Source of the DNA: Clostridia bacterium
GTDB taxonomy: Bacteria; Bacillota; Clostridia; UMGS1883; UMGS1540
NCBI GenBank assembly: GCA_045531205.1
Contig: JAZSDN010000104.1
Coordinates: 18,100 to 82,099 of the forward strand
Length of the DNA: 64,000 nucleotides
Direction: 5' to 3'
In this document: positions 18,207 to 54,207 of the stretch, one piece after another
Position numbering within the stretch: position 1 is the first letter of the stretch
Layout of the letters: every line of letters begins with the position of its first letter
Program-made: the position numbers and the translations under genes
The notes under the pieces: model-generated
What the model was told of the DNA's origin: nothing
Seen by the model: the letters and a program-made list of their open reading frames with translations, nothing else
Databases searched by the model: none

Positions 18207-18220
18207 AGGAGAATATTTTT

Positions 18221-18958: not shown

Positions 18959-18971
18959 GGAGGTGTATAAT

Positions 18972-19126: not shown

Positions 19127-19155
19127 TTGTATTTTAAACTAAATTTTGGTATAAT
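19127..19155 (+). promoter_or_regulatory. Putative extended -10 sigma-A promoter for secA (TTGTAT-N17-TG-n-TATAAT)
   Basis: tggtataat at 19147-19155 and ttgtat at 19127-19132, about 58 nt upstream of the secA start. Confidence 0.5.
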
Positions 19156-19213
19156 ATAAAATAGAATACGTGTATTTTGCCATTTTTTTAATTTTGGCAG
19201 TAAGGAGAATAAA

Positions 19214-33728: not shown

Positions 33729-34078
33729 GGGGATGTAACGGTTTCGACGGTGGGTTTGAACCACGGGAAGCGGGCAGGGGCGAGAGACCTCTTTAAAAAC
33801 TCTTAAAATTAAATTTAAACGCTAACGACAATTTAGCATTTGCAGCCTAATTAAAGGCTGCCGTCCTACCGCATAGTACTGCGGATGCGGATAGGGTGTC
33901 ACATTAGCAGTGAACGTGACCAAAGTAAGCTTTGCCTTTGGCATGAATAATGAAGCTACCAAAAATCAAAGTTTGTTTATGGGCTTTGGTTTGAGGGAAA
34001 TTTAACCATAAACTGCGCCCGGAGATGCCTGTGCGGATAGTTTGCCGGACAGGAGTTCAACTCTCCTCATCTCCACCA
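33729..34078 (+). ncRNA. ssrA: tmRNA (ssrA) with predicted tag ANDNLAFAA
   Basis: The 5' end GGGGATGTAACGGTTTCGACGG is tRNA-like. The 3' end GGAGTTCAACTCTCCTCATCTCCACCA is a T-arm plus CCA. There is an internal tag ORF gct aac gac aat tta gca ttt gca gcc taa, and a terminator follows immediately. Confidence 0.9.
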
Positions 34079-34487: not shown

Positions 34488-36665
34488 ATGCCAAAAATTT
34501 TACGAAAGGTAAATAACAATATGTTTAAGAATGCAACCTTTATTAAGGCAAACCTTCCTTATGTTAAAGACGAAAATGCACCGGCTCCGCTTATGCGTAA
34601 AACCTTCGAGCTGGCAGAGCTTCCCAAAAAAGCGGTAATTTCATTTGTAGCTTTGGGGTATGGAGTTGTTTACATAAACGGATATAGAGTTACGGAGGAT
34701 AAATTTTTATCTCCCGTGAGTGATTATACAAAAACCCTCTGGTACACAGAATATGATGTAACAAGCCTTTTGCAAAAAGGAAAAAATGTTATTGCAGCAG
34801 TGCTTGGCAATGGCTGGTACAACGAATTTGTAGAAAACACCTGGCTTTTCCATAATGCACCCTGGCGTGATAACCCAAAACTTTTACTGCAGCTTGATAT
34901 AGACGGCAAAGAAATTGTAAGTGACGAAAGCTGGGTTTATACAGATAAATCTCCTGTTGTGTTTAATCAGCTTCGCCTTGGCGAATACTTTGATGCACGC
35001 CTTTATGACAAGAACTGGAACAATATAGATTTTGACGATTCTTCGTGGACTCCTGTAAAGGTGGATGATACACCACCCACAGGCGTTTTGCGTAAATGTG
35101 AATGTGAGCCTTTGCGAGAGTGTGACTACTATGAGCCGCAAAGCATTACAAAACTGGGCGAAGACCACTATCTGTTTGATTTTGGACAGAATATGTCGGG
35201 CTATGCACGTCTTAAAGTAAATCAGCCTGCAGGCGATTTGATTACACTTGAATATGGCGAAAGATGTGAAGATGTTATGGTAAAAATAACAAGTACACAT
35301 CATTATAAGGGTTATTCAGACGTAGTTCAGGTAGACAAATTTACTTGCTCGGGCGAGGAATTTACCTGGACGCCTGAATTTACATATCACGGCTTCCGTT
35401 ATGTTGATGTCAAAGGCATAAAAAATCCCACAAAAGAAACTTTGACAGGAGTTTTTGTACATCAGGATGTAAAGAGAAGAAGCAGCTTTAACTCTTCAAA
35501 CGAAAAGCTTAACAAGCTGTTCGAAAACGGAATTTACGGGACCTACTCAAATATGTTTTATCAGCCCACAGACTGCCCGACAAGAGAAAAAATGGGTTGG
35601 TGTAACGATGCCCAGGCTTCGACCGAGCAGTTTTTGACAGATTTTGAAGCGGAACGCTTCTTGGAAAAATGGATGATAGACCTTCGTGATGCAATGAAGC
35701 CAAACGGAGCATTGCCTGTAATAGTTCCAACAGGCGGATGGGGATACGAATGGGGCAACGGCCCTGTTTGTGACGGCGTATTTTTTGAAGTGCCTTACCG
35801 TCTTTATCTGCACACAGGCAACAAAAAGTTTTTAGTTGATTCACTTGAATATTTTGACCGTTACCTTGCACTTTTAAAATCTTACGAAGACGAGAATCAG
35901 GATGTAACCATAGGACTTTGTGACTGGGCAGCAGCCGATAACGAAAACCGTGTTTCGGCAACCTTTATTAACAGTGTTTACAGAGTAAAGTTTTTGCGTA
36001 TTGCAATTTTGGCAGCAAAGCTTTCGGGGAAAGATACAACACCTTACGAAACCCATCTTAAAGAGCATCTTGCCGTTCATAACGAAAAATATACAAATAG
36101 TGACGGAACCTGCAAAATAAACAGATTAACATCTGTTGCAATGACAATTTATCACGATATTTATGAAGATATTGCACCTCTTGCATCCCAGCTTGCAAAG
36201 CTTTGCGAGGAAATGGACTTTCATCACGACAGCGGAATGGTAGGCGTTCGTCATTTATATTCAGCGCTTAATAAATGCGGACTCGAGGAGTATGCCTATA
36301 AAATAATAACCGCCAAAGGCTATCCTTCGTATTTTGACTGGCTTTGTGATGGTGCCACAACCTTGTACGAGCATTGGTGGGAAAGGGATTCGTCCTTTAA
36401 TCATCACATGTATTCAGACTTTATGTCGTGGATGATAAAAACCATTCTCGGCATAAAAGTAACATTTGAAAAAACTGTTGTTGCACCATATTTCTTCAAA
36501 GACCTTGATTTTGCATCAGGCCATTGCGAAGAAACAGCAGTTTCCTGGAAACGTAAGGATGGTAACATTTACCTTGATATTACCGTCGGGGGAGAAAAAA
36601 CAGTTATCTATGACTCAAAAATCCTTAAAAAGGGAACACACAATTTTGTTATAAAAGAAGCGTAA
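34488..36665 (+). CDS. Alpha-L-rhamnosidase (glycoside hydrolase family 78)
   Basis: 725 aa. The N-terminal blocks are typical of bacterial GH78 enzymes (PLMRKTFEL..., VYINGYRVTED..., LGNGWYNE), and the domain organisation fits GH78. There is no signal peptide. Confidence 0.7.
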   Translation: MPKILRKVNNNMFKNATFIKANLPYVKDENAPAPLMRKTFELAELPKKAVISFVALGYGVVYINGYRVTEDKFLSPVSDYTKTLWYTEYDVTSLLQKGKNVIAAVLGNGWYNEFVENTWLFHNAPWRDNPKLLLQLDIDGKEIVSDESWVYTDKSPVVFNQLRLGEYFDARLYDKNWNNIDFDDSSWTPVKVDDTPPTGVLRKCECEPLRECDYYEPQSITKLGEDHYLFDFGQNMSGYARLKVNQPAGDLITLEYGERCEDVMVKITSTHHYKGYSDVVQVDKFTCSGEEFTWTPEFTYHGFRYVDVKGIKNPTKETLTGVFVHQDVKRRSSFNSSNEKLNKLFENGIYGTYSNMFYQPTDCPTREKMGWCNDAQASTEQFLTDFEAERFLEKWMIDLRDAMKPNGALPVIVPTGGWGYEWGNGPVCDGVFFEVPYRLYLHTGNKKFLVDSLEYFDRYLALLKSYEDENQDVTIGLCDWAAADNENRVSATFINSVYRVKFLRIAILAAKLSGKDTTPYETHLKEHLAVHNEKYTNSDGTCKINRLTSVAMTIYHDIYEDIAPLASQLAKLCEEMDFHHDSGMVGVRHLYSALNKCGLEEYAYKIITAKGYPSYFDWLCDGATTLYEHWWERDSSFNHHMYSDFMSWMIKTILGIKVTFEKTVVAPYFFKDLDFASGHCEETAVSWKRKDGNIYLDITVGGEKTVIYDSKILKKGTHNFVIKEA

Positions 36666-36710: not shown

Positions 36711-37209
36711 GTATAAAACCTATCATACCGCTAAACAAAAATATATTGTAGGGTGCAGCGTTTACGATGCACCGAAAATGAAATATTGTAGGGAAGGGCC
36801 TTGGTCCTTCCGTATAAAAGGATAGAATAACAAGAGTTTCCGGCAGGAGCTGAGCCCCTGCCCTACAATGCCGATGCTGTGCAAGTCACGCCACACTTCT
36901 CTAAAAAGCACTACACAAAAAAGTTATATAAAAAACAGGCACTAAAAAAACACCAAACAAAAACCGCCTCCCCTTGCACAGGGGAGGTGAGTTTGCCTTT
37001 GGGCAAACCCGGAGGGGGTTGTTGCCATCACTGCTTTGGTAATAAAAATTAAAACGGGCTGTCTGGGACGTCAGCCCTTACAAAATGAGGAGTATTTTTT
37101 ACATATAAGAGTAGATTTTTTACGTGTACATTTTTGCACCTTTGTGCAATAATAAAGTGTAGAATGCGACAGAAGTATTCATAACAAATTATTTAAGGAG
37201 GAAATTATA

Positions 37210-39273
37210 ATGTTAAAAAAACTCATGGCAATAGTCCTTGTTGGATTATTAACAATTGCTAGCATGGCAGTAATGCCTGCTATGGCGGCAAATTTTCAAT
37301 CCCAATACAACTTAAGCTTTGAGCAGACAACTCAAAGTGATGCAGCCTTACTTCCATCTGGCTGGACTGTTGGTGCAAATCTTTCATCCGATGAAACAAC
37401 CAATAGTTTTGCAGTAGTATCAAATGAACAGGCTCAAGAAGGAACTTATTCTTTAAAGATCAAGCACACTGCTATAGGAACTGTGAACGATAGAGTATGG
37501 AGAGTAGTGACAGGTCTTACACCTGGTGCACAATATGTTGTAACAGGATATATGTATTTAACAGGATATACAAATAATGCGGGTATAATGGTATTTGATG
37601 GCAATACAGGTGCATCTGGAGCGAACTGGATAAGCGGTTTGTCTGGTGGCACTGGTATTATGAATGAAACTACCCAGATAACAAAAGCAGGATTAAATAA
37701 ATGGATTCCCTTAACTGCAACCTTTACAGCACCTGCAAACGGTATTGTTTCTCTTGCAATTGGAGCATATAATTCATCTTCCACTAATGGTACAGTATAT
37801 TTTGATGCTCTTGATTTACACGAACTGAATTTTGAATATCATTACAATACCAGCTTTGAGCAGACAACTCAAAGTGGTACAGCCTTACTTCCGTCTGGCT
37901 GGACTGTTGGTACAAATCTTTCATCTGATGAAACAACCAATAGTTTTGCAGTAGTATCAAATGAACAGGCTAAAGAAGGAACTTATTCTTTAAAGCTCAA
38001 GCACACTGGTGTAAGTTCTGCGAACGATAGAGTATGGAGAGTAGTGAGCGATCTTACCCCAGGTGCACAATATATGGTAACAGGATATATGTATTTAGCA
38101 AATTATATGAAATATGCAGGAATATTTGTATATGATGGCAATACAGGTGCATCTGGAGCAAACTGGGCAAGCGGTCTGACTGGTACCACCGGTGCTATAG
38201 AAGAGGTTCCTCAGATAGTAAATGGATTATCAAATAAATGGCTTCCCTTGAGTGCAACCTTTACAGCACCTGCAAACGGAACTGTTTCTCTTGCAGTGGG
38301 AGCATATAATTCATCTTCTACTAATGGTACAGTATATTTTGATGACCTTGCTTTATACAAATTAGAAGACGGATTTGACGCTGAAAACAATTTAAGCTTT
38401 GAGCAAATAGAATCAAACTTTACAACATTCATTCCAACTGGCTGGAATATCAGCCTTTCATCCGATGAAACATCCGATAAATTTGCAGTAGTATCGGATG
38501 AACAGGCTAGAACAGGGAACTTTTCTTTAAAGATGAAGAACTCTTCATTGGCAAGTGTTACAGATAGACCTTGGAAATTAATAAGTGGTCTTACACCTGG
38601 TGCAGCATATATGGTAACAGGATATATGAAAGTAACATCACCCTTGTATTATGCGGGTATTAATGTATATGGATCTAACGATGGTACCGGTAGCTCCTGG
38701 TCAGGTTTAAATGTTAGTTCTGGTATTTTGAGTGAGACAAACATGATAACGTTAGGAGCAGGCAAATGGCTGCCTATTATTACATACTTTATTGCACCTG
38801 ATGATGGTGCGGTTTCACTTGCATTGGTAGCAAGCAATTCAGCTAGCACTAGTGGTATAGCATATTTTGATGATATTACCGTAACAAAAATGGCTGATAC
38901 AGTTGGCTTTGATGTAAAGGTTTTGGATGCAAATTTTGAAGAAGTAACAGATCTTAATGCAGGTCAGGCAACTACTGTTAAGCTTATGGTAAATGGCACA
39001 AATATGACTGCATCTGATAAAAACTACACACTTATTTATGCTACATACAGCAAGACTGGCGATATAGTAGAAATGAACACAGTAGCCCTCAGTGCAGGAA
39101 CAGTAGCTGCAAAGGCGGACGCTGCTACCGTACCTGGTTCCATAAATGCTAACGCAGGTGCTTGCATTAATAGTGCAATAAATATTACTATTCCCGCAGG
39201 TCAGACACTTAAAGTATTTATATTTGACAATATGGAAACACTTAACCTTGTTTCTGAAAAGGTAATTCAATAA
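37210..39273 (+). CDS. Secreted protein made of three tandem CBM4_9/CBM22-like carbohydrate-binding modules plus a C-terminal Ig-like domain, with no catalytic or anchoring domain
   Basis: A signal peptide (MLKKLMAIVLVGLLTIASMAVMPAMAA). There are three ~180-aa modules with the CBM4_9 pattern (NxSFEQ...GWT...EGTYSLK...LTPGAQYxVTGYM...WxPLxATFTAP...TVYFDD). Modules 1 and 2 are about 95% identical at the nucleotide level. Confidence 0.75.
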   Translation: MLKKLMAIVLVGLLTIASMAVMPAMAANFQSQYNLSFEQTTQSDAALLPSGWTVGANLSSDETTNSFAVVSNEQAQEGTYSLKIKHTAIGTVNDRVWRVVTGLTPGAQYVVTGYMYLTGYTNNAGIMVFDGNTGASGANWISGLSGGTGIMNETTQITKAGLNKWIPLTATFTAPANGIVSLAIGAYNSSSTNGTVYFDALDLHELNFEYHYNTSFEQTTQSGTALLPSGWTVGTNLSSDETTNSFAVVSNEQAKEGTYSLKLKHTGVSSANDRVWRVVSDLTPGAQYMVTGYMYLANYMKYAGIFVYDGNTGASGANWASGLTGTTGAIEEVPQIVNGLSNKWLPLSATFTAPANGTVSLAVGAYNSSSTNGTVYFDDLALYKLEDGFDAENNLSFEQIESNFTTFIPTGWNISLSSDETSDKFAVVSDEQARTGNFSLKMKNSSLASVTDRPWKLISGLTPGAAYMVTGYMKVTSPLYYAGINVYGSNDGTGSSWSGLNVSSGILSETNMITLGAGKWLPIITYFIAPDDGAVSLALVASNSASTSGIAYFDDITVTKMADTVGFDVKVLDANFEEVTDLNAGQATTVKLMVNGTNMTASDKNYTLIYATYSKTGDIVEMNTVALSAGTVAAKADAATVPGSINANAGACINSAINITIPAGQTLKVFIFDNMETLNLVSEKVIQ
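37315..38388 (+). repeat. Intragenic tandem duplication (2 x ~537 bp) encoding CBM-like modules 1 and 2 of the 37210 gene
   Basis: Near-identical nucleotide stretches begin agctttgagcagacaactcaaagtg at 37315 and again at 37852. The third module is clearly more diverged. Confidence 0.8.
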
Positions 39274-39303
39274 TCTGAAAAATTTTAATGGAGGTATAAA
39301 GCT

Positions 39304-40362
39304 ATGAAAAAAATCCTTAGCGTGTTATTAGCTATGATGATGCTTACAAGCGTATTTGCTTTCAGCGTAAGTGCTGATGCAAGCACTATCGTTGTAACAC
39401 AGGCAACAATGGATGCAAGCGGTGTTATTACTGTAGTTGGAAAATATACATCAGGCACACCCGGCGCTGTAACAATTCTTGCAACAGCACAGAATGAAGA
39501 AAAAGACTCTGCAGCTTTAAACAGCACAACAGACGCAACTATTACTTATGTTGACAATAAAACTGCGGCAGCTGACGGCTCGTTTACATTTAAATTCAAA
39601 CCCAGAGCAGTAGCAGGTACATACACAACAATATATGTATGTACAGGCGGTGCTCAGGCAAACCTCTTTACAGGCAACTTTGCAGAAAATGAAGTTAAAG
39701 TAAACTATGACGGCACAACAAAATCCTACACAAGCGTAGATGGCGTTGTAGCAATCTCCTTACGTCCCGCAACAAAAAATGAAACAAATATTGCTACACT
39801 CGACGGTTATTTTAAACAGTGGGATATTATGGGCTTAAAGGCTAACACCGAAGGCAAAGATAAACCCTACGAAATAAACAACTTAAAAGCCGGTATAATT
39901 ACAGCTACACCTGAATTTTACGCTGATCCCACACATACAGATCTTTCAATGGCAAAAGCACAGAAAGCAACATTGAAAGACGGAAAGCTTGCAATCCGTT
40001 TCCTCGCACTTGTAGGCGAAAATTATGGAAGCTATACTAATGCAGGCTTTGTTGTTTCAACATTGGGTACAAATCCCACAATTGAAGCAGGCTACAAAGC
40101 AAATGTATTTAATAATCTTTACGAAAAGGTTGCAGCTGCAGGGCAGACATTTGACATTGCAGATGAAGCAATTAAAACACTCTTTAACGTAGAATTTAAT
40201 CCCGCAGGTATCCTCTATGCAAACCTTATAATCGAAGATACAGATGCAGCTAAAAATACAACATATTATGCAACTCCTTATCTTGAAGGTCCAAGTGGTA
40301 GAGTTTACGGCGCAACAAAGGCAATAAGCTATGCACAGCTTGCCACAAATGATGCACAATAA
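39304..40362 (+). CDS. Hypothetical secreted protein (352 aa), paralog of the 53137 gene
   Basis: A signal peptide. It shares roughly 50% identity over its full length with the 53137..54207 product (IVVTQATM...GTPGAVTIL...TTIYVC...GYFKQWDIMG...AIRFLALVGE...PAGILYANL). I recognise no family. Confidence 0.7.
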   Translation: MKKILSVLLAMMMLTSVFAFSVSADASTIVVTQATMDASGVITVVGKYTSGTPGAVTILATAQNEEKDSAALNSTTDATITYVDNKTAAADGSFTFKFKPRAVAGTYTTIYVCTGGAQANLFTGNFAENEVKVNYDGTTKSYTSVDGVVAISLRPATKNETNIATLDGYFKQWDIMGLKANTEGKDKPYEINNLKAGIITATPEFYADPTHTDLSMAKAQKATLKDGKLAIRFLALVGENYGSYTNAGFVVSTLGTNPTIEAGYKANVFNNLYEKVAAAGQTFDIADEAIKTLFNVEFNPAGILYANLIIEDTDAAKNTTYYATPYLEGPSGRVYGATKAISYAQLATNDAQ

Positions 40363-40383
40363 GGTTTGAAGGAGGAAATAAAA

Positions 40384-40536
40384 ATGAAAGAAAAATATTT
40401 AACACCTTCGGCAGAAACCGTATTGTTTGACATTAACGCTGTATCAATGACTATAAATCTTGTAAGCCTTGAAGATAATGGCGAATCAAACCTTTTGAAC
40501 GATATCGGAAACGGTCTTGTTGTCGAAGAAAACTAA
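40384..40536 (+). CDS. Possible small protein (50 aa; MKEKYLTPSAETVLFDINAVSMTINLVSLEDNGESNLLNDIGNGLVVEEN)
   Basis: The ORF is below the track cutoff. AAGGAGGAAATAAAA-ATG is identical in form to the RBS of the neighbouring large genes. A terminator-like hairpin follows at about 40578-40616. Confidence 0.35.
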   Translation: MKEKYLTPSAETVLFDINAVSMTINLVSLEDNGESNLLNDIGNGLVVEEN

Positions 40537-40809
40537 ATTGATAAATTTTTTCTCATAGAAAAAGTTCTTCTCATACAAAAATATCCGCTTGCTTTTGGCA
40601 AACGGATATTTTTGTATAATTAACTAAGATGTGTGCGAAAAAAAGTGCAAACTCCCTGAAACTTAAAAAGTTGCTAAAAATTTCTGCATAAGGAACATTT
40701 TTTACACGCATCAGTTAATTTTTTTCATTTACTTTTTTGTGCTTGTATGCGATAATATATTATAGAATACCCGCAATGTATTCGTAGTAAATAAAAGGAG
40801 GAAATTATA

Positions 40810-42786
40810 ATGTTAAAAAAACTTATGGCAGTAGCCCTTGCGGGGTTATTAACACTCGGTAGCATGGCAATGATGACTACCGCAGAAACAGAACCGGTTA
40901 CAAGTCTGCTCTACGATTTTGAAAATCAGGAAATGGCAGGAGAAACCGGAGCACCAACCGGTTGGTGGACATATTTTGATGCAGAAGGTATTGTAAAGCT
41001 TAACGAAGAACAAACCGCAGGCCAGCCTGAAGTATATGGTCTTGGCAACAAGTGTTTGGAAATTGACTGTACAGGCAAAGAATATGACGAAGCTGCTTAC
41101 TTTAGTGTTACCTTAAAACCTAATACTACTTATGTTCTTTCAGCTTGGGTAAAAGGTGTAGACGGGGAAGGAAATCCTGCTACAGTATACTGCAGAGTAC
41201 CTTTGTTAGCACCCGGTGGAACTAATTACTCTGCTGATTATTTAACACGTGCATGGTCAAGCGGTGATGCCGCAGGAACAAAAAACTGGCACCAGTCAGT
41301 AAGTACTCCTTACACAACAGGGGATGAAGAAATTGCTACAACAGTATGGCTCAGAGGTCTTGCAGGTCATAAAGTATTTTACGACAACATTGCTTTATAC
41401 GAAGTAGCAGATAACTATAGCTCTTTTGAAAATGTAAAAGTAAAAGATTCAGCACTCGTTCCTGTTGATTGGAATACAGATGTCCTTTCAACAAATACTG
41501 AAACCGATAGCTATGCAGTAGTATCAAATGCAAAGGCTAAAACAGGTAACTATTCTTTAGAAGTAAAATCTACTTCATTAAATTTGGGTTACAGAGTGTG
41601 GAAACCTCTTAAAGGTCTTACCCCCGGTGCAAAATATATGGTAACAGGCTATGTAAACGTAACAGCACCTGTATATAACTTGGGTGTGGTTATATATGAC
41701 GGCAGCACAGGCGGTGGTACCAGCTGGACAGCAAATCTTTTATCTATGGCTCTTTTAAATAGAGATACTCAGCAGACAAAAGATGTATGGATGCCCCTTG
41801 TTACATACTTTGACGCACCCCAGAGCGGTGAAGCTTCTCTTGCTCTTATAACAAATATTGGTTATGGCTACTTGGGAACAACATATTTTGATGATTTTAC
41901 TGTATCAAAAGTTGAAGCTGGCGATGATGCTAAATACAACACCGGTTTTGAATATATCAAATCAACCGGTACAGCATTCGTTCCCGACGGCTGGAACTCT
42001 CCTCTTTCAACAGATACCGAAAGCAACAGCTATGCAATAGCATCAACCGAAAGAGTAAGAACAGGCAACTATTCTTTACAAATTAAGAATAACAGCTTTA
42101 ACGTTGGTCAGAGAGTATGGAGACAAATAACCGGTCTTACCCCAGGCAAAAAATATATGGTATCAGGCTATATGAATATTACATCACCCTTCAATTTGGC
42201 GGGAATGATTGTATTTGACGATAACAACGGCGGTGTAGGCTGGACATCAGGTCTTGGTATTTCAGGCGTTATGGGAGAGGCTGCACAGATGGCTGCAGGA
42301 TCAAATAAATGGTTGCCTGTAGTTACAACCTTTATTGCACCTGCAGACGGTATCGTTTCTCTTGCAATTGGAACATTCAATTCAGCTACCACAAACGGAA
42401 CGGCATATTTTGATGATATTACTATAACAGAAGTACCCGAAGGTGTTAAATACGATTTAAAGGTTCTGGACGCAGATGGTAAAGCAGCAACAGCTCTTAA
42501 TCCTGAACAGGATAACAATGTTACTATTGTGTTAGATGGAACAAATACTACTGCAGAGGAAAAACCATACACACTTGTTTATGCTACATATAGTAAAGAC
42601 GGTGAATTTGCAGAATTGCAGACAGTTTCTATTAAATCAAATGTGATGACAGTTCCTAATGACAAACAACCCGGTTTTGCAAAAGAAGTAATTGGTGTTA
42701 CAGTTCCCAAAGGACATACATTAAAAGTATTTTTATTTGAAGATATGAGCAAAATTAAAACAGCTGCTTCATATTCAGTTGAATAA
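40810..42786 (+). CDS. Secreted CBM4_9/CBM22-like module array protein (three modules plus a C-terminal Ig-like domain), paralog of the 37210 gene
   Basis: The RBS/start context (aaggaggaaattataATGttaaaaaaac) and signal peptide are the same as for 37210. The modules have the same CBM pattern and the C-terminal domain is the same. Confidence 0.75.
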   Translation: MLKKLMAVALAGLLTLGSMAMMTTAETEPVTSLLYDFENQEMAGETGAPTGWWTYFDAEGIVKLNEEQTAGQPEVYGLGNKCLEIDCTGKEYDEAAYFSVTLKPNTTYVLSAWVKGVDGEGNPATVYCRVPLLAPGGTNYSADYLTRAWSSGDAAGTKNWHQSVSTPYTTGDEEIATTVWLRGLAGHKVFYDNIALYEVADNYSSFENVKVKDSALVPVDWNTDVLSTNTETDSYAVVSNAKAKTGNYSLEVKSTSLNLGYRVWKPLKGLTPGAKYMVTGYVNVTAPVYNLGVVIYDGSTGGGTSWTANLLSMALLNRDTQQTKDVWMPLVTYFDAPQSGEASLALITNIGYGYLGTTYFDDFTVSKVEAGDDAKYNTGFEYIKSTGTAFVPDGWNSPLSTDTESNSYAIASTERVRTGNYSLQIKNNSFNVGQRVWRQITGLTPGKKYMVSGYMNITSPFNLAGMIVFDDNNGGVGWTSGLGISGVMGEAAQMAAGSNKWLPVVTTFIAPADGIVSLAIGTFNSATTNGTAYFDDITITEVPEGVKYDLKVLDADGKAATALNPEQDNNVTIVLDGTNTTAEEKPYTLVYATYSKDGEFAELQTVSIKSNVMTVPNDKQPGFAKEVIGVTVPKGHTLKVFLFEDMSKIKTAASYSVE

Positions 42787-43023
42787 TACATTTAAAATAC
42801 TGCTAAGGTAGCAGAAAATGACAGAGCAAAGGCTTTTAAAAAGCCTTTGCCTGTCCTTTATAATATAGATATCCAGGGAAATGAAATATTTTGGGTTAAA
42901 ATTTTGTCTCCTGGTTTGGCGGAGATATTAAAAAACGAATATTCCGCACATCCTGCTTTAAAAGTCAGAACAATGTGCGTTTTTATAAAGGAAGGTATGA
43001 AAAAGGAAAGGAATGAAAAATTT

Positions 43024-46000
43024 ATGAAAAAAAGATTTTTAGCCGTTTTATTGACACTTTGCTTGCTTATAACAAGCTTGCCCTTTGCAGCAATAGCTGC
43101 TGAAGGGGATAAAGACTTTATATTGAACGGCAGCTTTGAAGAAGTTAAATCAGACGGTAAAACACTTAGAGATTGGAGTGTTTTGGACTATAAAGATAAG
43201 TTTGTTGAAGCTTATGATGAAGAAGCGTATGAAGGGAAATATTCTGCGCGTCTTAATGGCGAAGGACAGGATAAGGTTCGTATTTACTTTAGCAAATTAA
43301 GAGATATGAAACCCGGAGGCAAATATACACTTTCATTCTTTGTAAATGCAAAGAATAAAAAAGGCGATCTTGTTTTAGACGTTACAGTTGCCGGAAAAAA
43401 CTATGCACAAAGCTACAAGCCAAAAGCTAACCGCTGGACTGAAATCACTCTTAACTTTACAGTACCTAAAACAGGAACGGCGGGTTCAATGTACATAGGT
43501 GCATATAACGGACTTGATGTTCTTGTTGACAAAGTAACAGTAATGGGACCTGTGCGTGGAGAAAACGACAACCCCGAAGTAGACGAAAACACTGTAACAC
43601 CCCCCGCAAGCACAGTAGAGGTTATTGCTGATACAGAAAAAAACAGCACACCTCCGAAATCCGTACCAAAGAGCGTTCCCGATTCCAATGCAATAGCAAG
43701 CGGCAGAAACCTTGTACAGAACGCCGATTTTGAAAATGATACAAACAATATTGGTCCCTGGAACTGGGAACCCTATTTTGCAGGCTGGGACCAGAATAAC
43801 CAGATGGTTGTTTATGATAAAACCTTTGGTCACGAAAGTGAGCGTTCAATTAAGCTCACTAACGGCAATCCCGCACAAAGACCCTGGGTCAGACAGGTAA
43901 TAGAAGTAAGTGCAGAAACTGAATACCAGGCAAGTATGTGGTACTACACAAACTTTACCGCCGAGGAAAGCGATGCAGATAAAAGAGGCAAAAGCAATAC
44001 TGTTATTATGGTTGAGTATTACACGGGCGAACCGGGCTCTGATACATATTTAGGTGTTGATGATTTATTTGCACTAAGTGGTACAGGCGGCAAGTGGATT
44101 CAGACTGCCGCAACATTTACCACACCTCCCAACACAAAGTATATTCGTTATTATGCACGCAGATACGGTGTCGGCACAGTTTGGGTTGACGATATGGCAC
44201 TTTACAGCACCACAAAGCCAAACCCCGTAGGTGTAAGTACCGACCAGATTTTCTATTATTCTGACCAGACCGCTGCAGGCGTTGCCACGGCGGAGCTTGA
44301 TTTACTCGCATTCCCCGAACTTGAAAACGCAAAAATTGACTTTGCATTGACACTTGATGGTAAAACTGTTGCAGAGCAGAAGGGCGTGCAGGCAAAAGGT
44401 TCTACTGCGACATGGTACTTTGACCTTTCCTGGATGACTAAAAAGCAAACAGAATACAGAATTGAAGCTACTGTAAACGGAAAAACTGATTTTGAAAGAG
44501 TATATAAATACGATCGTCCTACATATTTAGGAAAAGACGGAGTTTTCCGCAAAAACGGTCAGGCACTTATGCCGACTTATGCGTGGTACTATGTTGAAAG
44601 ACAGTACGGCTACGGAATGATAGACGCGCAGATAAATGTTGCCGAAGTAGGTATTCCTCGTTCGGAAAGTATGACTGACGCGCAAAAGATAGCCCAAATT
44701 ACAAAAACCCTGGATGACCTTTGGGCACGCGGTATGTACGGTCTTATCTTAACCTATAGTAATAGTAGGGGCGGTGGACATCCTGACCTCCGACACGATA
44801 CCGAGCTTATTTGTGCAGCAATTAAGGACCATCCCGCAGTTTATGCGTATATAAATAATGATGAGCCTTTTGCAAGAACAGGTAACCCGCATGATGAATT
44901 AAGAGAAACATATATTGCAATTCGTAATAATGACCCCAACCACCCCGTTATGTCAATGGAACAGGGTGCATACGGCGAAGCTGCAAAATTTGTAGATATT
45001 TTTGGTCATGACCCATACCCCGGCGATACTAGAGACCCACTTACCTACGTTGCTCAAAGAAGAAGCGATGCTGACGAGGCGACACAAGGTCTTAGACCTG
45101 TAAACTCGCTTTTACAGGTTATGAACTGGAGAGGATACTTCCCCACAGGCGACGACCTTCGTAGTATGATTTATCAAACATTCTTAGAGGGTGGCGGCAG
45201 CTACGGTTTCTTTAAATTTATAAATGCAAGTGACGCTGGCGACGATCTTGACGAAACACACCTTTGGGAACCACTTACAGAATTTACTCATAATGAGCGT
45301 GAGGACGCTTTTAAAGCCTTCGTATTTGACGAATATCCCATTTTCAGCAATGTTAAAAAGGATAATTATTGGGCAGTATCCTATGTAAAGGGCAACCAGG
45401 TTAATATGGTAGTCTTAAACCGTAAAAAAGAAGATCAGCAACTTTCAATACCTCTTACAAGCTGCGGCGGTACACATACTATAACCGAATTTACAGGTAA
45501 AGCAGCATTTGGTGGTAAGGGAGAGGACGTTTCAGGAAGCGGCGTATTAAACATTACATTACCCGCAGGCGCAGCAGTTCTTTATGAAATTAAACCTACG
45601 AATGTAGGCGAAATTGCAGGCGTACCCGTTATGCGTTTCCGTGATTTGGATGGTTACGACTGGGCATTTAATTCCATTTTAAAAATGGATAATGCAGGAG
45701 TATTAGACTCTTTGGCATACCATTACTACCGTCCCGAAAAAAACATTACAAGAGGCGACTTTGCAATGTTCCTCATTCGTGCGTTAGGTCTTACAGCCGA
45801 AAATGCAACCTGCACATTTACTGATGTATTGCCTGCAGTTACCTATTCAAAAGAAGTTGCAATAGGTCAGGCGTTAGGAATACTTCTTGGCTCAGGTGAC
45901 GGAACCTTTAGACCCGAAGAACCCATTTCAAGACAGGACTTCATGGTAATCTGTGCAAGAGGTATGCGTTTAGTTTCCGAAAACGGACTTTCGGGCGGTG

Positions 46001-46182
46001 ACCTTTCAGCCTTCTCTGATGCTTCTTTGGTAGCAGATTATGCAGCACAAGATATAATGGCAATGGTAAATGCAGGCATAGTAAAGGGTAATGCCGACGG
46101 CACAATTAACCCCCTTGGCAATACAACAAGAGCAGAAGCAGCAGTTATTATGGATAGAATCAGTGCTTGGAAAGCACAGTAA
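43024..46182 (+). CDS. Large cell-surface protein: signal peptide, 2 CBM4_9-like modules, a conserved unassigned ~450-aa glycosidase-like core, and 3 C-terminal SLH domains
   Basis: The SLH repeats are clear (FTDVLPAVTYSKEVAIGQALGILLGSGDGTFRPEEPISRQDF; NADGTINPLGNTTRAEAAVIMDRI). The core is shared with the 46225 and 48942 genes (YKYDRPTYLGKDGVFR, HPDLRHD, NNDEP, RETYIAIRNNDPNHPV, MEQG, GHDPYP). The start is set at MKKRFLAVLL by analogy with the paralog. In-frame alternatives are 42997 and the longest ORF from 42847. Confidence 0.7.
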   Translation: MKKRFLAVLLTLCLLITSLPFAAIAAEGDKDFILNGSFEEVKSDGKTLRDWSVLDYKDKFVEAYDEEAYEGKYSARLNGEGQDKVRIYFSKLRDMKPGGKYTLSFFVNAKNKKGDLVLDVTVAGKNYAQSYKPKANRWTEITLNFTVPKTGTAGSMYIGAYNGLDVLVDKVTVMGPVRGENDNPEVDENTVTPPASTVEVIADTEKNSTPPKSVPKSVPDSNAIASGRNLVQNADFENDTNNIGPWNWEPYFAGWDQNNQMVVYDKTFGHESERSIKLTNGNPAQRPWVRQVIEVSAETEYQASMWYYTNFTAEESDADKRGKSNTVIMVEYYTGEPGSDTYLGVDDLFALSGTGGKWIQTAATFTTPPNTKYIRYYARRYGVGTVWVDDMALYSTTKPNPVGVSTDQIFYYSDQTAAGVATAELDLLAFPELENAKIDFALTLDGKTVAEQKGVQAKGSTATWYFDLSWMTKKQTEYRIEATVNGKTDFERVYKYDRPTYLGKDGVFRKNGQALMPTYAWYYVERQYGYGMIDAQINVAEVGIPRSESMTDAQKIAQITKTLDDLWARGMYGLILTYSNSRGGGHPDLRHDTELICAAIKDHPAVYAYINNDEPFARTGNPHDELRETYIAIRNNDPNHPVMSMEQGAYGEAAKFVDIFGHDPYPGDTRDPLTYVAQRRSDADEATQGLRPVNSLLQVMNWRGYFPTGDDLRSMIYQTFLEGGGSYGFFKFINASDAGDDLDETHLWEPLTEFTHNEREDAFKAFVFDEYPIFSNVKKDNYWAVSYVKGNQVNMVVLNRKKEDQQLSIPLTSCGGTHTITEFTGKAAFGGKGEDVSGSGVLNITLPAGAAVLYEIKPTNVGEIAGVPVMRFRDLDGYDWAFNSILKMDNAGVLDSLAYHYYRPEKNITRGDFAMFLIRALGLTAENATCTFTDVLPAVTYSKEVAIGQALGILLGSGDGTFRPEEPISRQDFMVICARGMRLVSENGLSGGDLSAFSDASLVADYAAQDIMAMVNAGIVKGNADGTINPLGNTTRAEAAVIMDRISAWKAQ

Positions 46183-46224: not shown

Positions 46225-48852
46225 ATGAAAAGATTTTTAGCACTTTTAATGTCGGTATGCCTTATTATAACAGCACTGCCTATAATGGCATCGGCAGATT
46301 TTGTTGCAGATATTGAAAAGAATACATTGATACCGGACGGAACGCCTGAAAGCGTTCCCTCCGATGACGAAATTATTGGTGTATCAAACCTTTTGCAAAA
46401 CGGCGATTTTGAAAATGATACCAATAATATCGGCCCCTGGAACTGGACCGGCTTTGGCGGTGCATGGGGCCCGAACCAGATGGTTGTATACGAAACAAAT
46501 TTCGGTCACGAAAGCAGCCGAAGCGTAAAGCTTACAAATGGTGACCCGCTTGTAAGACCCTGGGTAATGCAGGCTATTGAAATTGACGCAGAAGCAGAAT
46601 ATCAGTTTGGTATGTGGATTTATACAAACTTCACAGCAGAGCAAAGCGATGGAGATAAAAGAGGTAAAGGAAACACAGCCCTTTTGATTGAATTTTATAG
46701 CGGCGTACCGGGATCAGATACTACAAATGGTTCTATTGACTTAATTGCTCCATCGGGAACAGGAGGTAAGTGGGTACATTTTACTCAAAGATTAGAAATA
46801 CCTGCCGGCACAAAATATGCCCGTGTTTATGCTCGTAGATACGGCGTAGGTACAGTTTGGGTAGATGATATGACTGTATATAACACAGTAAGACCAAACC
46901 CCATAACCGTAACACCTGACCAGACATTCTATTATTCTGACCAGACAACACCCGCTTACGCAGAAGCTGAAGTTAACTTAAAAGCATACCCCGAACTTGA
47001 AGGTACAAAGCTTGATATGGCTTTAACACTTAACGGAAAGGTTATTGAAGAACAAAAGGATATCCAGACCGACGAAAACGGTATTGCAAAGTGGTATTTT
47101 GATGTATCCTGGATGAATCTTAAAAATACTGAATACCGCATTGAAGCAACTGTGGACGAATATACCAATTTTGACTATGTTTATAAATACGACCGTCCTA
47201 CCTACTTAGGAAAAGATGGTGTATTCCGTAAAAATGGCGTAGAGCTTATGCCAAGCTATGCTTGGTGGTATATGGAAAATCACTATAAAGCAGGTGCCAA
47301 GGAAGGCAAAATAACTATTGCCGAGGTCGGCATACCCCGTACAGGCTCCGACAGATCGAAGATAGCATCAATAAAGAAAACTCTTGATACGTTACAGAAA
47401 AAGGGAATGTACGCTCTTATACTGACCTATTCTGAAATGAAAGGTGGCGGACATCCAGACCTTCGTCACGATACCGAGCTTATTTGTGCAGCGATTAAAG
47501 ACCATCCCGCAGTTTTTGCGTATGTAAATAACGACGAACCCTTTGCAAGAAATGCAAACGCAGGGGATGAACTTAGAGAAACATATATTGCAATCCGTAA
47601 CAACGACCCTAACCACCCCGTTATGTCAATGGAACAGGGCTCATATAATAAGGCGGTAAGATATGTAGATATTTTTGGTATTGACCCATATCCTGCTGAC
47701 CTTAGAGATCCTCTTACCTTCGTTGCACAGAAAGTAAATGAGGCATTTAAAATACTGGATGGCAGAAAACCTGTGTATACTCTTTTACAGGCACTCGATT
47801 ACAGAGGATACTGGCCATCAAACGACGAAATGCGTAGTATGATATATCAGTCGTTCCTTTCAGGTGGCGGTGGTGTTGGTTACTTTAGATTTTATCAGGC
47901 GCAAGGTAAGATTGACTTACACCAGACTGACCTTTGGCCCGCAATTTCGGGTTGGGCTCAAAACGAGTTTGAAGATACCTACAATGCATTTGTATTAGAT
48001 AAATATCCCATTTTCAGCGACGTAAAAGAAGATGATTACTGGGCAGTATCCTATGTAAAGGAAAACAAAATACAAATGGTAGTCTTAAACCGTAAAAAAG
48101 AAGACCAGGAAATAGAAATACCTCTTACAAGCTTAAATGGCACAAATCAAATAACCGCATTCACAGGAAAACTCCTTTATGGTGCTGAGGAAGCAACCGT
48201 TTCAGGTAACGAAGTTTTAAAGATTACTCTTCCCGGCAGTGCAGCACTTCTTTACGAAATCGTTCCTAAAAACGCTGCAGAAATCAGCGGAGTAGAAGTA
48301 ATGCGTTTCCGTGATTTAACAAAGTACGGATGGGCTTATGATTCCATTTTAAGAATGGATAAAGCAGGTGTTTTAGACTCAAACGCTTACCATTACTACC
48401 ATCCTGAAAGAAATATTACAAGAGGCGACTTTGCAATGTTCCTCGTTCGTGCATTAGGTCTTAAGGCTGACAATGCAACCTGCACATTCACAGATGTATT
48501 ACCTAACGTTACCTATGCAAAGGAAGTTGCAATAGGTCAGACTTTGGGAATACTCAAAGGCTCAGGTGACGGAACTTTCAGACCCGAAGAACCCATTTCA
48601 AGACAGGACTTTATGGTAATTTGTGCAAGAGGTATGCGTTTAGTTTCCGAAAACGGACTTTCGGGCGGCGACCTTTCGGCATTCTCTGATGCCGCTTTGG
48701 TAGCAGATTATGCAGCAGAGGACATAATGGCAATGGTAAATGCAGGCATAGTAAAGGGTAATGCCGATGGCACAATTAACCCTCTTGGCAACGCAACAAG
48801 AGCCGAAGCCGCAGTTATTATGGACAGAATAACTGCTTGGAAGGCACAATAA
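46225..48852 (+). CDS. Cell-surface paralog: signal peptide, 1 CBM4_9-like module, the same conserved core, and 3 C-terminal SLH domains
   Basis: Collinear with the 43024 gene from its second CBM onward. The C-terminal ~600 nt are about 90% identical to the 43024 gene at the nucleotide level. Confidence 0.75.
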   Translation: MKRFLALLMSVCLIITALPIMASADFVADIEKNTLIPDGTPESVPSDDEIIGVSNLLQNGDFENDTNNIGPWNWTGFGGAWGPNQMVVYETNFGHESSRSVKLTNGDPLVRPWVMQAIEIDAEAEYQFGMWIYTNFTAEQSDGDKRGKGNTALLIEFYSGVPGSDTTNGSIDLIAPSGTGGKWVHFTQRLEIPAGTKYARVYARRYGVGTVWVDDMTVYNTVRPNPITVTPDQTFYYSDQTTPAYAEAEVNLKAYPELEGTKLDMALTLNGKVIEEQKDIQTDENGIAKWYFDVSWMNLKNTEYRIEATVDEYTNFDYVYKYDRPTYLGKDGVFRKNGVELMPSYAWWYMENHYKAGAKEGKITIAEVGIPRTGSDRSKIASIKKTLDTLQKKGMYALILTYSEMKGGGHPDLRHDTELICAAIKDHPAVFAYVNNDEPFARNANAGDELRETYIAIRNNDPNHPVMSMEQGSYNKAVRYVDIFGIDPYPADLRDPLTFVAQKVNEAFKILDGRKPVYTLLQALDYRGYWPSNDEMRSMIYQSFLSGGGGVGYFRFYQAQGKIDLHQTDLWPAISGWAQNEFEDTYNAFVLDKYPIFSDVKEDDYWAVSYVKENKIQMVVLNRKKEDQEIEIPLTSLNGTNQITAFTGKLLYGAEEATVSGNEVLKITLPGSAALLYEIVPKNAAEISGVEVMRFRDLTKYGWAYDSILRMDKAGVLDSNAYHYYHPERNITRGDFAMFLVRALGLKADNATCTFTDVLPNVTYAKEVAIGQTLGILKGSGDGTFRPEEPISRQDFMVICARGMRLVSENGLSGGDLSAFSDAALVADYAAEDIMAMVNAGIVKGNADGTINPLGNATRAEAAVIMDRITAWKAQ

Positions 48853-48941
48853 AATAGAAAAGAACGGAAGTTTTTTCAATAGCGCAAAGGCTATTAACAG
48901 CCTTTGCACTGTACTTTTTGGAAGAAATGAGGGATTTTACA

Positions 48942-51900
48942 ATGAAAAAACGAATATTAGCATGGTTGCTTGTACTGGTGGTCTTATTTACTATGACACC
49001 ACTTGCAACAGCTGTGACAGCAGAAGACGAAATTGAACAAAATGCCGAGCTTCTTACAAACGGAGATTTTGAATCCGTAACAGCGGACGGAAAAACTCTT
49101 AACTACTGGAACCCATGGGTTACAACTGCTGATTATAGCGAATACACCATAGTAACAGATGATGTTTATGAGGGCAATTATGCCGTAAAAATGAAATATG
49201 ATTCTTCAACAGGCAAACTGAGAAATGCAATTACACGAACTGAATCAAATGTAGTGGTTGGAGGCCAAAGCTATACGTTTACAGCCTATGCAAAAGCGTG
49301 TGAAGCTGTAGGCAGTGTTTCGATAGAAATAAAGTTTGGAGGTTACGGCGAAGAAGCTATTGCGTATAACAACAATTCAACAGATTATGTTGTAGGACAA
49401 TATCAAAAGATTGAAAAAACCTTTTCCGTGCCCGCAGAAGTAACCAGCTTTTCGATTTATATTCGTGTTTATGGCGGAGAATTTATTTTTGATAATTTCT
49501 CCATAAAAGGTCCGAAGCGTATTATAGAGATTATTCAGCCCGATGAAGTAATTGCGCAGGACACAACACCGCCCCAAGGCACCGAACAGGAAGTGCAAAG
49601 CGAATTTATACCAAATAACAGTTTTGAAGCCACAAGCACATGGCTTGGGACTACATACCTTAAAAATTGGACTGCATTAAGCAATGCAAACGATTATGGT
49701 GAATACACTATATCGACAGATGCTAAAGACGGAGCAAAAGCTATCAAAATGGCGTTTGACTCTACAAAAGGAAAAATAAGAAACACTATTTATCAAAGAG
49801 TTGACATACCGCTTGTAGCGGGAGAAAGCTACACATTCACAGCCTATGTAAAGGGCTTGACATCGGAAGCTGCTGCTTCTGTTCAAATAGAACAGGGTTC
49901 ATTTTTACAAGTAGTGTCTTATAATAATACACAGGAAAACTATGCACAGGGAGAGTATGTAACGCTTGAACATACCTTTACAGCACCCGAGGGAATAACA
50001 AGCTTTAATGTGTTCATCCGTATTACAAGCGGAGAATTTATTTGGGACAAGGTATCAATTGTTGGTGCAAGGATGATGACTGCGGTTGAAAGCGTACCAA
50101 ACGCTGACTATATATCCGGATTACCCAATATCCTTATAGACTCATCCTTTGAAGAAAAGATAACAGGACGAAATGCCACAGGTGGATGGGGAACTACAAC
50201 ACAGTTTGTTAATAATTTTGGACATAACAGTGCTACCTGTGCGAGAATAGTGAACACAACAGAAAATACAAGAAATTATTTAGCCCAAAGGCTTACACTT
50301 CATGGCGGTTGTGTATATCAGGTAAGCTTGTGGATTTGCATGGAAAAGCCAAGCGACACTAAATATTCAGCAGCCAAAAATGGTTCAATGGCTGTAGACT
50401 ATATAACTTATGGTTTAGACGGTTCTGTTATAAAAGACCAAAGCCAAAGTCTTGGAGTAACTGGAACTGATGGAAAGTGGAAACAGTGTGTATTTCAGAT
50501 AACACCCACTGATGGAACTGCTGCAGCAATGATTATGCCTCGACTAACCGGACGCGGAACTGCATGGGTAGATGATGTTGAGGTAAGCCTTGTTTCAAAC
50601 GAAAATGCGTGGGCAGTTTCGGTTGAAACAGATGAAGTATTCTATTACAGCGACAGAGAAGAAGCAGGCACAGCAACAGTCGCTATTAATGTAGGTGCTC
50701 ATCCTGAACTTGTTGGAGAGGACATCACATTTACTCTGCTTCGAAATGGCGCTACACTTGGCACTAACACAATGAAATGTGAAAGTGGTAAAAATTACTA
50801 TAATAGCAGCTTTGATTTAAGCCTTTTATCAGAAAAAAAGGCAGAGTATATTATGAAAGTCGAGATAGGGGAATATACAGCCGAAACAAAGCTCTATAAA
50901 TATGACAGACCGCTTTATATCGGTAAAGACGGAGTATTCCGCGATAAAAACGGTAAAGTATTCAAGCCCTTCTATGCGTATAATATGCTGGATGAGCATT
51001 TAGACTTCGCTGCAGAGGATGCAAACTTCAATTTACATATGATAGGCATACCTAGTGACAAAGATGGAGAAGAGCTTGTACAGTATATGAGAAATGAGCT
51101 GGATGAGCTTCAGCAAAAAGGTTATATGGCGCTTGTACAAACCTATGGCTTATATGAGGGCTTAAACGTTCCTGGGGGACATCCTTCCCGTCGCGAAAGA
51201 ACAGCAACTGTGGTAGCAGGACTAAAAGACCATCCCGCACTTTTTGGCTATATGAATATGGATGAACCCATGACACAAAGCAGAGATTTGCGTGATGACT
51301 TAAGAGAAACATATATTGCAATCAGAAATAACGACCCATACCATCCAGTATGCACAACAGAACAGGGTAGTTATGATAAGTCAGTAAAATATGTAGATGT
51401 ATTGGGAATTGACCCTTATGTCGGAACCAATGTTCCATATACGTATGTAGGCAACAAAGTAACAGAGGCCGTAGCTGCAACAAAGGGTGAAAAACCTGTT
51501 TATGCAGTTTTGCAGGCGTTTGAATGGCGTAGTTACTGGCCATCCCGTAATGATTTGAGGGATATGATTTATCAGGCCATAATGGCCGGTGCATCAGGAA
51601 TAGGTTTTTACAAATTTGTAGATGCAAAGGGTGAACTTGAACTACATGCAACAGACCTTTGGCCGGTAATATCAGATTTTGGACAAAATGAGTGGAATAC
51701 TGCTTATAAAGCATTTGTAAAAGGAGACTATCCGGAATTTAGCACTAAAAGAGAAACTAATTATTGGATGAACTCTTTTGTAAAAGAAAATAACAAGCTC
51801 ATTATGTATGTAGCAAACCGTACAAACGCTGTGCAGGAAATTACATTTACTCTTGTAAGTGATGACAATACAATGTCGATTGGTGCATACACCGTTGAAA

Positions 51901-53136: not shown

Positions 53137-54207
53137 ATGAAAAAAATTCTTAGAGTGTTATTAGCAATGATAATGCTGTTTTCAATGATGTGCACTCTTT
53201 TTGTAAATGCTGACACCACTACCATTGTTGTAACACAAGCCACAATGGGAACAGATGGCAATGTTACTGTACGTGGTAAAGTTACCTCGGGGACACCCGG
53301 TGCAGTAACAATTCTGGTAACGGTGCAGAATGCAGCAAACGGCAAGGAAGCTTTGAGTACAATGGCTGATGGTTCAACAGTAGCCTATGCTGACCAAACA
53401 AGTCCTAATCAAAGTGGTGAATTTGAATTCAAATTCAAACCAAAAGCAGATTTGTCAGGTTCACACACAACAATATATGTATGTGCAACAGGTGTTACGA
53501 TAGAAAACTTGTTTGCCGAAAACCTTACAGGCAATGAGGTTAAAGTAAATTATGGCACTACAACAAAACCATATGAAAGCGTAGACGGCGTTGTAACAAT
53601 ATCCTTACGTCCCGCAGAAAAAGACAGTGTAGCTATCGCAACCGAAACAGGTTACTTTAAGCAGTGGGATATTATGGGTATAAAATCAACTACAGAAGGG
53701 ACACAAAAAGAGGTTACACTTAATAATAACATCAAAGCCGGAATACTTACAGCTAAACCTGAATTTTTTGATGATCCCGCACATACATCTGTTTCAGCGG
53801 CAAAAGCACAGAGTGTTATATTGGCAAACGGAAAAAAAGCAATCCGTTTTCTGGCACTTGTAGGAGAAGATTATGAAAACTATGCAAATGCAGGTTTTGT
53901 ACTTTCAACATTAGGAACAAATCCCACAGTTGAAGCAGGCTACAAAGCACATAAATTCAATAATTTGTATAAAAAGATTATTGCCGAAGGTGCTGAATTA
54001 GATGTTACAGATGAAGCAATTAAAAATACTTTTGAGACCACATTTACACCCGCAGGCATCCTCTATGCAAACCTTGTAATCGAAGAAGGAAATGAAAATA
54101 CAGTGTATTATGCAACACCTTATCTTGAAGATGCAAGACACAACAGAATTTATGGAGCAACAAAGAAAATAAGCTTAAATGAGCTTACACAGTTAGATGC
54201 TCAATAA
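53137..54207 (+). CDS. Hypothetical secreted protein (356 aa), paralog of the 39304 gene
   Basis: A signal peptide and collinear similarity to the 39304 product. It is followed by a terminator hairpin (gtttgcttttaagcaaac + T-run) homologous to the one after the 39304 gene. Confidence 0.7.
   Translation: MKKILRVLLAMIMLFSMMCTLFVNADTTTIVVTQATMGTDGNVTVRGKVTSGTPGAVTILVTVQNAANGKEALSTMADGSTVAYADQTSPNQSGEFEFKFKPKADLSGSHTTIYVCATGVTIENLFAENLTGNEVKVNYGTTTKPYESVDGVVTISLRPAEKDSVAIATETGYFKQWDIMGIKSTTEGTQKEVTLNNNIKAGILTAKPEFFDDPAHTSVSAAKAQSVILANGKKAIRFLALVGEDYENYANAGFVLSTLGTNPTVEAGYKAHKFNNLYKKIIAEGAELDVTDEAIKNTFETTFTPAGILYANLVIEEGNENTVYYATPYLEDARHNRIYGATKKISLNELTQLDAQ

Follow-up and report, generated by a model that had tools for sequence, protein, structure and literature searches.

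Genes and features of the locus

The window analyzed here, a stretch of 64,000 nucleotides on contig JAZSDN010000104.1 of a Clostridia bacterium, contains two paralogous genes, A and C, coding for secreted proteins composed of domains that resemble carbohydrate-binding modules (CBMs) of the CBM4_9 type. All window features described below lie on the plus strand unless stated otherwise. Between positions 37210 and 42786, this strand holds three substantial open reading frames (ORFs), namely A, B, and C, plus one small ORF of 50 aa. The original prediction for this interval described two secreted proteins, each consisting of a signal peptide, three modules and a C-terminal Ig-like domain, and the ORFs 37210-39273 (A) and 40810-42786 (C) confirm this description. 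Gene B (39304-40362) and the 50-aa ORF (40384-40536) had been omitted from it.

Protein A comprises 687 aa, with a signal peptide (aa 1-26) followed by three divergent CBM4_9-like modules, module 1 (37306-37842, aa 33-211), module 2 (37843-38385, aa 212-392) and module 3 (38386-38901, aa 393-564), and by a C-terminal beta-sandwich domain of ~120 aa (38902-39270). The secreted paralog C (658 aa) is made up of a signal peptide, a canonical CBM_4_9 module (40906-41412, aa 33-201), two modules of the divergent type (41413-41934, aa 202-375, and 41935-42444, aa 376-545), the second of which shares 51% identity with modules 1 and 3 of A, and a C-terminal beta-sandwich domain (42445-42783) with 38% identity to its counterpart in A. 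Both genes are preceded by a strong ribosome-binding site (RBS), AAGGAGG, and both products start with a Sec signal peptide with an AXA-like cleavage site as read from the sequence, MLKKLMAIVLVGLLTIASMAVMPAMA before AN in A and MLKKLMAVALAGLLTLGSMAMMTTA before ETE in C. Over the RBS and the first 84 nt, A and C (37195-37278 and 40795-40878) are 86% identical at the DNA level, despite a protein identity of 37% over the whole length, which points to gene conversion or to a strong constraint on the 5′-end. In addition, ~110 nt upstream of A and C are mutually alignable and promoter-like; each of the two genes therefore appears to possess its own duplicated 5′ control region.

The earlier statement that both proteins lack catalytic domains and SLH, dockerin or LPXTG anchors is supported by all searches performed. 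The Pfam scan detected no catalytic domain and no SLH domain (PF00395) in A and C, and no dockerin (PF00404) or cohesin match at E <= 0.1 in either of them or in the neighboring proteins B, D, E, F, and G, so that the interaction motifs of the cohesin/dockerin kind for which a search had been suggested are missing from this set. An LPXTG-like motif was likewise absent from A and C in a regular-expression search, with both C-termini being formed by a beta-strand (...SEKVIQ and ...ASYSVE). Neither signal peptide contains a cysteine, and hence no lipobox cysteine is present.

Module identity and the internal repeat of gene A

All six modules of A and C possess an invariant F-E close to the N-terminus and an invariant C-terminal aspartate within a YFD-like motif, (Y/F)-(F/Y)-D, and 40 core positions are invariant over the five divergent modules. 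In the Pfam scan, only module 1 of C exceeded the gathering threshold of CBM_4_9 (PF02018; E 7.5e-8, 33.3 bits with a cut-off of 25.9 bits). Modules 1-3 of A gave no CBM_4_9 match at E <= 0.1, modules 2 and 3 of C were not covered by this family, and an NCBIfam scan yielded nothing further on the modules of A and C. Compared with Pfam CBM_4_9, the first module of C is a member, and the other five share the F-E and (Y/F)-x-D signature; they differ in having no Pfam match at E <= 0.1 and in carrying an insertion of ~14-16 residues (DGNTGASGANW..SGL) relative to the CBM_4_9 domains of the neighboring proteins.

Profile and structure comparisons place the divergent modules close to this family. 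When a profile of the five modules was aligned by hhalign to a profile of verified CBM_4_9 domains (those of the downstream proteins D and F, of two genes of the related locus L017, and module 1 of C), a probability of 96.8% and an E value of 2.3e-10 were obtained over 136 columns, and blastp connected the modules of A to the CBM_4_9 region of D (E 6e-8). An AlphaFold2 (AF2) model of residues 393-687 of A, based on an alignment of 18 family sequences, reached a predicted local distance difference test score (pLDDT) of 86.8 and a predicted template modeling score (pTM) of 0.81, and replaced a single-sequence model of full-length A with a pLDDT of 40. Foldseek matched this model to a tandem CBM22 and to the CBM4-Ig pair of CbhA, and the jelly roll predicted for module 3 is superimposable on solved CBMs with the beta-jelly-roll fold of CBM4/9/16/22. 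The designation of the modules as CBM4_9/CBM22-like beta-sandwiches in the original prediction holds at the level of homology and predicted fold, with five of them representing a divergent subtype, while Pfam membership is confined to module 1 of C. A phage or toxin origin, as raised by CBM-like matches to Vip3, tail fibers and the GTA spike fiber, was rejected, there being no phage or toxin context, and weak matches to IglC, HdeD, DUF2911, and fibronectin were dismissed as sub-threshold noise.

Gene A had been reported to contain a very recent tandem duplication, with modules 1 and 2 about 95% identical at the DNA level, and this had been taken as a sign of ongoing expansion. Repeat finding and direct comparison showed that a head-to-tail repeat does exist, with a period of exactly 537 nt; Tandem Repeats Finder misses it, its maximum period being 500 nt. 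The identity is lower than stated. Positions 37315-37851 and 37852-38388 are 83.6% identical in an ungapped comparison, the best blastn segment (510 nt) reaches 86.1% (E 1.8e-175), and values of 95-97% are confined to the first ~120 nt. At the protein level, modules 1 and 2 share 73-74% identity, compared to 49% between module 3 and either of them. The Nei-Gojobori method yielded a dS of 0.19 and a dN of 0.17 for this pair, corresponding to a dN/dS of 0.88, and dN/dS values of 0.6-0.95 for the other module pairs. The tandem duplication is the youngest duplication of the locus, yet with 84-86% nucleotide identity and a dS of 0.19 it is not very recent, and the notion of an ongoing expansion is not supported. 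Diversification of binding sites between the two copies was considered as well and is not claimed here, as the substitutions are not significantly enriched in predicted loops (Fisher p = 0.37).

The family and its genomic neighborhood

A search of 1.84 billion representative sequences with a hidden Markov model (HMM) of the module profile returned 112 matches at E <= 1e-3, 12 of them at E <= 1e-10. In the same collection, ~13 representative clusters carry the C-terminal domain, the HMM of which retrieved A and C with E values of 1e-42 to 1e-43 and 10 other representatives with values of 1e-15 to 1e-44. The best family matches are proteins of ~470-530 aa that start with a similar signal peptide, continue with a first CBM module and one divergent module, and end in the same C-terminal domain. 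In these two-module relatives, the first module is, where checked, usually a Pfam-detectable CBM_4_9. Three modules are found, besides A and C, in P0072 (654 aa). The members are 21-38% identical to one another. A word-indexed search of 5.8 billion proteins recovered A and C themselves only, and a query of this word-indexed collection with the family profile added just three more distant CBM proteins. Both proteins are singletons in a collection of 15 billion proteins, and the module profile found no relative in the contigs of species-representative genomes. A metagenome scan, which returned 6 weak and distant loci, was not used. The literature search for a described equivalent of the family retrieved general analogs only. 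A and C hence belong to a rare, unannotated family of CBM-only proteins from uncultured gut Clostridia lineages that are known from metagenome-assembled genomes (MAGs) alone. The nearest relatives of the GH78 protein encoded upstream of A (45-55% identity) also stem from gut Clostridia MAGs, including Candidatus Flemingiibacterium.

The family signature is the C-terminal domain. According to the AF2 model of A, the last ~115 residues form a seven-stranded beta-sandwich, for which "Ig-like" describes the shape only, and this domain has no sequence match in Pfam or the PDB. Within the family it is 21-36% identical, with invariant positions. Its HMM further recognizes the final 100 residues of a secreted protein of 1118 aa (single-sequence E 5e-9) encoded at positions 16791-20147 of locus L007, a Hadza-gut Clostridia locus which further contains GH78, GH36-like, and GH63-like enzymes and an SLH protein. 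In this protein, an AXE1-like esterase domain, a Laminin_G_3 domain and a sialidase-like CBM precede the C-terminal beta-sandwich. Judged by this distribution, the domain would look like a portable docking or retention module common to otherwise anchorless secreted carbohydrate-active enzymes (CAZymes).

In all six loci with sequence downstream of a family gene, the gene directly 3′ of a family gene is of one type, represented in the window by D, E, and F; in this count the window enters as C followed by D, A itself being followed by B. The intergenic gaps are short in most cases; outside the window, the D/E/F-type genes begin 18-79 nt downstream, with 29-51% identity along the full length. 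In locus L014, family gene P0003 is followed after 30 nt by a D-like gene, which, as far as it extends before the contig end, shares 44% identity with D. P0004 (L017) precedes two D-like genes (51% and 41%) with a gap of 27 nt, and P0010 (L026) a single one (32%) with a gap of 35 nt. In L027, the three-module member P0072 lies 79 nt ahead of a D-like gene (29%), which is followed by another D-like gene without SLH. P0005 (L028) is separated by 18 nt from two D-like genes, which are in turn followed by a homolog of B and a 50-aa ORF. The largest gap, 237 nt, is the one between C and D in the window. Since the family members are just 21-38% identical, their adjacency to genes of this type must be ancient. 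The related loci further contain AraC regulators and a solute-binding protein. L027 also repeats a GH78 rhamnosidase directly upstream of the family gene, as found in the window, where a GH78 alpha-L-rhamnosidase (34488-36665) directly precedes A.

The partner genes D (43024-46182), E (46225-48852), and F (48942-53072) code for proteins combining CBM_4_9 modules with a conserved central domain of ~400 aa. According to blastp among the window proteins, D and E are 67% identical, and F, a larger paralog with additional CBM_4_9 modules, is 30-36% identical to both. D and E carry clear SLH repeats (E 1e-23 to 1e-25), and F has a sub-threshold trace only (E 0.082, 13.3 bits with a cut-off of 20.8 bits). 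The starts of D and F were set to the ATG codons at 43024 (MKKRFLAVLL...) and 48942 (MKKRILAWLL...), each of which comes with an RBS and a signal peptide; the mechanically assigned TTG starts (42847 and 48918) are over-extended. Compared with the PDB, the profile of the central domain weakly matched enzymes of glycoside hydrolase (GH) clan GH-A, namely GH158 (1.2e-5), human and bacterial GH2 beta-glucuronidases (GUS; 2.7e-5 and 4.2e-5) and GH5/GH26 mannanases and endoglucanases (~1e-3), suggesting a GH-A-like TIM barrel. The invariant "nmDEPf" of D, E, and F aligns with the "vaNEPa" strand of GUS. In GH2, the strand with "NEP" carries the acid/base glutamate, and GH-A enzymes usually have N-E-P in the place where D, E, and F have an invariant D-E-P. 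An invariant glutamine ("VLQA") is found where the beta-7 nucleophile might be expected. The position of this motif on the acid/base strand of GH2 and the clan GH-A matches make D, E, and F probable wall-anchored glycoside hydrolases; they would form an unclassified family, perhaps with unusual catalytic residues.

Gene B, which starts 30 nt past A, and its paralog G (53137-54207, 60% identity) complete the set. For these secreted proteins, of which B is 352 aa long, no match was obtained in Pfam, NCBIfam or the PDB, and only 5 relatives were found among 5.8 billion proteins. The C-terminal ~140 aa of B and G are also found at the end of P0118, a protein of 587 aa. As the B homolog of L028 closes a pair of D-type genes, B and G may also belong to the system. 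The 50-aa ORF 3′ of B, MKEKYLTPSAETVLFDINAVSMTINLVSLEDNGESNLLNDIGNGLVVEEN, is probably a real small gene: a closely similar counterpart, MKEKYLTPSAETVLFDINRVSMTISLTSLDDGENTNNLLENIGNGLVTEE, follows the B homolog in another MAG (L028, 8807-8959). Its product is acidic, without signal peptide and without a Pfam match; a copy 3′ of G is not present. The same surface system may also include H (54676-57726, minus strand), a protein of 1016 aa with N-terminal SLH repeats and an otherwise uncharacterized body, a homolog of which (39% identity) is encoded in the syntenic L027 (1537-4452).

The locus has been expanded by duplication at the level of the module (A1/A2) and of the gene (A/C, D/E, B/G), and possibly at that of the whole cluster. 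The arrangement in L028 suggests an ancestral order of CBM protein, D, a second D-type gene, B and small ORF, from which the window may have arisen by duplication of the cluster and reciprocal losses, one copy having retained A, B and the small ORF and the other C, D, E, F, and G. A perfect hairpin, GCAAAGGCT-loop-AGCCTTTGC, occurs at 42826-42850 and at 48884-48907, that is, twice in 64 kb with 0 copies expected. Both copies are intergenic and lie just upstream of D and F; they could represent a shared terminator, attenuator or other regulatory element.

Proposed function and alternative explanations

We consider it about an even chance (roughly 0.5) that A and C act as multivalent, non-catalytic binders of glycans in support of SLH-anchored putative hydrolases. 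According to this proposal, each Sec-secreted protein, with three CBM4/9/22-type jelly-roll modules and the family-specific Ig-like beta-sandwich behind them, would be an accessory encoded by the first gene of a conserved genetic module, the core of which would be one to three SLH-anchored D/E/F-type proteins. The CBM array might capture or concentrate polysaccharide at the cell surface and feed it to the wall-anchored hydrolases, while the C-terminal beta-sandwich would be the best candidate for holding A and C to these enzymes or to the wall. The recurrent GH78 neighbor gives a weak hint at a rhamnose-containing polymer as possible substrate. The earlier idea that the two proteins could be partners of the neighboring SLH proteins gains real, if circumstantial, support from the D/E/F-type genes found directly downstream in six of six loci of deeply diverged genomes; a physical or functional coupling is what we infer from this arrangement.

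Gram-positive gut bacteria use non-catalytic CBM proteins, for instance the Sas proteins of the amylosome, and to our knowledge there are few examples outside cohesin-dockerin systems. Sas6 of Ruminococcus bromii is a non-catalytic amylosome component with a signal peptide, CBM26, CBM74, BIg domains and a dockerin (10.1101/2022.11.20.514607). Like A and C, it is a secreted Gram-positive gut protein of ~700 aa with several CBMs and Ig-like domains and without a catalytic domain, and it is assumed to work together with glycosidases associated with the cell (10.1101/2022.11.20.514607). It differs in combining CBM26 and CBM74 with a type I dockerin and in having scaffoldin-bound partners, whereas A and C are of the CBM4_9 type, dockerin-free, terminated by an unclassified beta-sandwich and encoded with SLH-anchored partners. 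A second parallel is provided by the surface glycan-binding proteins (SGBPs, SusE/F-like) of Bacteroides, which act in synergy with surface glycosidases (PMC7157763). These, too, are non-catalytic multi-domain beta-sandwich glycan binders encoded beside surface glycosidases, as are A and C ahead of D, E, and F (PMC7157763). In contrast, SGBPs are outer-membrane lipoproteins of Gram-negative Bacteroidota working with SusC/D, while A and C start with an ordinary Sec signal and come from a Clostridia context with SLH proteins, and the Pfam scan found no SusC/D among the window neighbors. By this comparison, A and C would parallel Sas6 and the SGBPs functionally without being members of either group, given the lack of dockerin, lipobox, and SusC/D. 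The structurally closest arrays, the CBM4-Ig tandem of CbhA/CelK from Clostridium thermocellum (PDB 3k4z, 3p6b) and the CBM22 tandem of Xyn10C from Paenibacillus (4xup), are N-terminal appendages of GH9 and GH10 enzymes, whereas the array of A and C stands alone; the sequence identity between the respective modules is 10-19%.

In genetic terms, the locus defines a CBM-only family linked to an unclassified, GH-A-like type of SLH-anchored enzyme. If binding and coupling hold true, this would amount to a new CBM subfamily with a possibly rhamnose-containing glycan target, to a candidate new glycoside hydrolase family and possibly to a new attachment module, with current concepts not being overturned. 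A more far-reaching version, which we regard as speculative and on the whole unlikely, is that the ~115-aa C-terminal beta-sandwich is an unrecognized docking module attaching CBM arrays and secreted CAZymes such as the L007 esterase non-covalently to SLH-anchored enzymes or the wall, thereby forming a cohesin/dockerin-independent minimal "surface glycan-capture complex", and that D, E, and F constitute a new clan GH-A-like GH family in which D-E-P has replaced the usual N-E-P acid/base motif.

Several observations weigh against an assisting role at the surface. The gene next downstream of A in the window is B and not a D-type gene, and the 237-nt gap between C and D contains the hairpin and a promoter-like site. 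In locus L029, two D-type genes lie beside GH89 and no family gene is present. No similarity of the C-terminal domain was detected to cohesin, dockerin or SLH, nor to B/G or any part of D, E, and F (hhalign probability 0.1-2%), which leaves tethering by this domain as pure inference. Moreover, the dN/dS of 0.88 between modules 1 and 2 of A fits relaxed constraint, and five of the six modules stay below the CBM_4_9 threshold of Pfam. The occurrence of D-type genes without a family gene in L029 would at the same time fit an accessory role of A and C.

It is possible, if doubtful, that A and C are instead free lectins or adhesins, acting in adhesion, aggregation or substrate scavenging and coupled neither physically nor functionally to D, E, and F. 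They would then be released into the medium or attach independently to glycans of host, dietary or biofilm origin, and the co-location with D, E, and F would reflect no more than co-regulation on the same substrate. Besides the order of A and B, the gap between C and D and the D-type genes of L029, the lack of any recognizable anchor or docking domain and the separate conserved promoter-like 5′ regions of A and C are in line with such a role. However, in the five other, deeply diverged loci the genes are directly adjacent, mostly at distances of 18-35 nt, which is tighter than a linkage at the level of a regulon. Furthermore, the conservation of the C-terminal domain throughout the family, including its invariant positions, and its presence at the end of another secreted CAZyme suggest a specific role for this domain.

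An assisting role for both proteins would also be called into question if A were a recently expanded, redundant paralog that drifts under relaxed selection, especially in its duplicated modules 1 and 2, and contributes little function itself, and C, which has the ancestral canonical CBM_4_9, were the working gene. The dN/dS values of the module pairs, the detachment of A from D-type genes and its lack of the canonical first CBM_4_9 found in C and in most of the two-module relatives checked would agree with this. Nevertheless, we regard it as quite improbable: the ORF of 687 codons is intact and equipped with a strong RBS and a signal peptide, the 40 core positions have remained invariant over the five divergent modules, a neutral copy at a dS of 0.19 would normally contain stops or frameshifts within 2 kb, and pairwise estimates by the Nei-Gojobori method are subject to noise when they are based on 180 codons. 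Finally, that the jelly rolls have a non-carbohydrate ligand such as a protein, for example in an S-layer-associated structural or shielding role or as phage-receptor decoy, appears very improbable in view of the sequence-level homology to CBM_4_9 and the consistently carbohydrate-related context (GH78, GH-A-like enzymes, AraC, solute-binding protein, GH89), even though the fold is also common to MAM domains, Vip/Cry toxin domains, cyclases and phage fiber domains, D and F have GTA_spike_fiber matches in NCBIfam, and five of the six modules stay without a Pfam CBM_4_9 assignment.

Elsewhere in the window, a transfer-messenger RNA gene (ssrA, tag ANDNLAFAA) is located at 33729-34078, ~400 nt upstream of the GH78/CBM/SLH cluster. 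The ssrA gene is a classic integration site of genomic islands; neither an integrase nor a GC shift was seen. Further upstream, secA is preceded by a Na+ riboswitch of the DUF1646 motif (18880-18932; Rfam RF03071, 45 bits).

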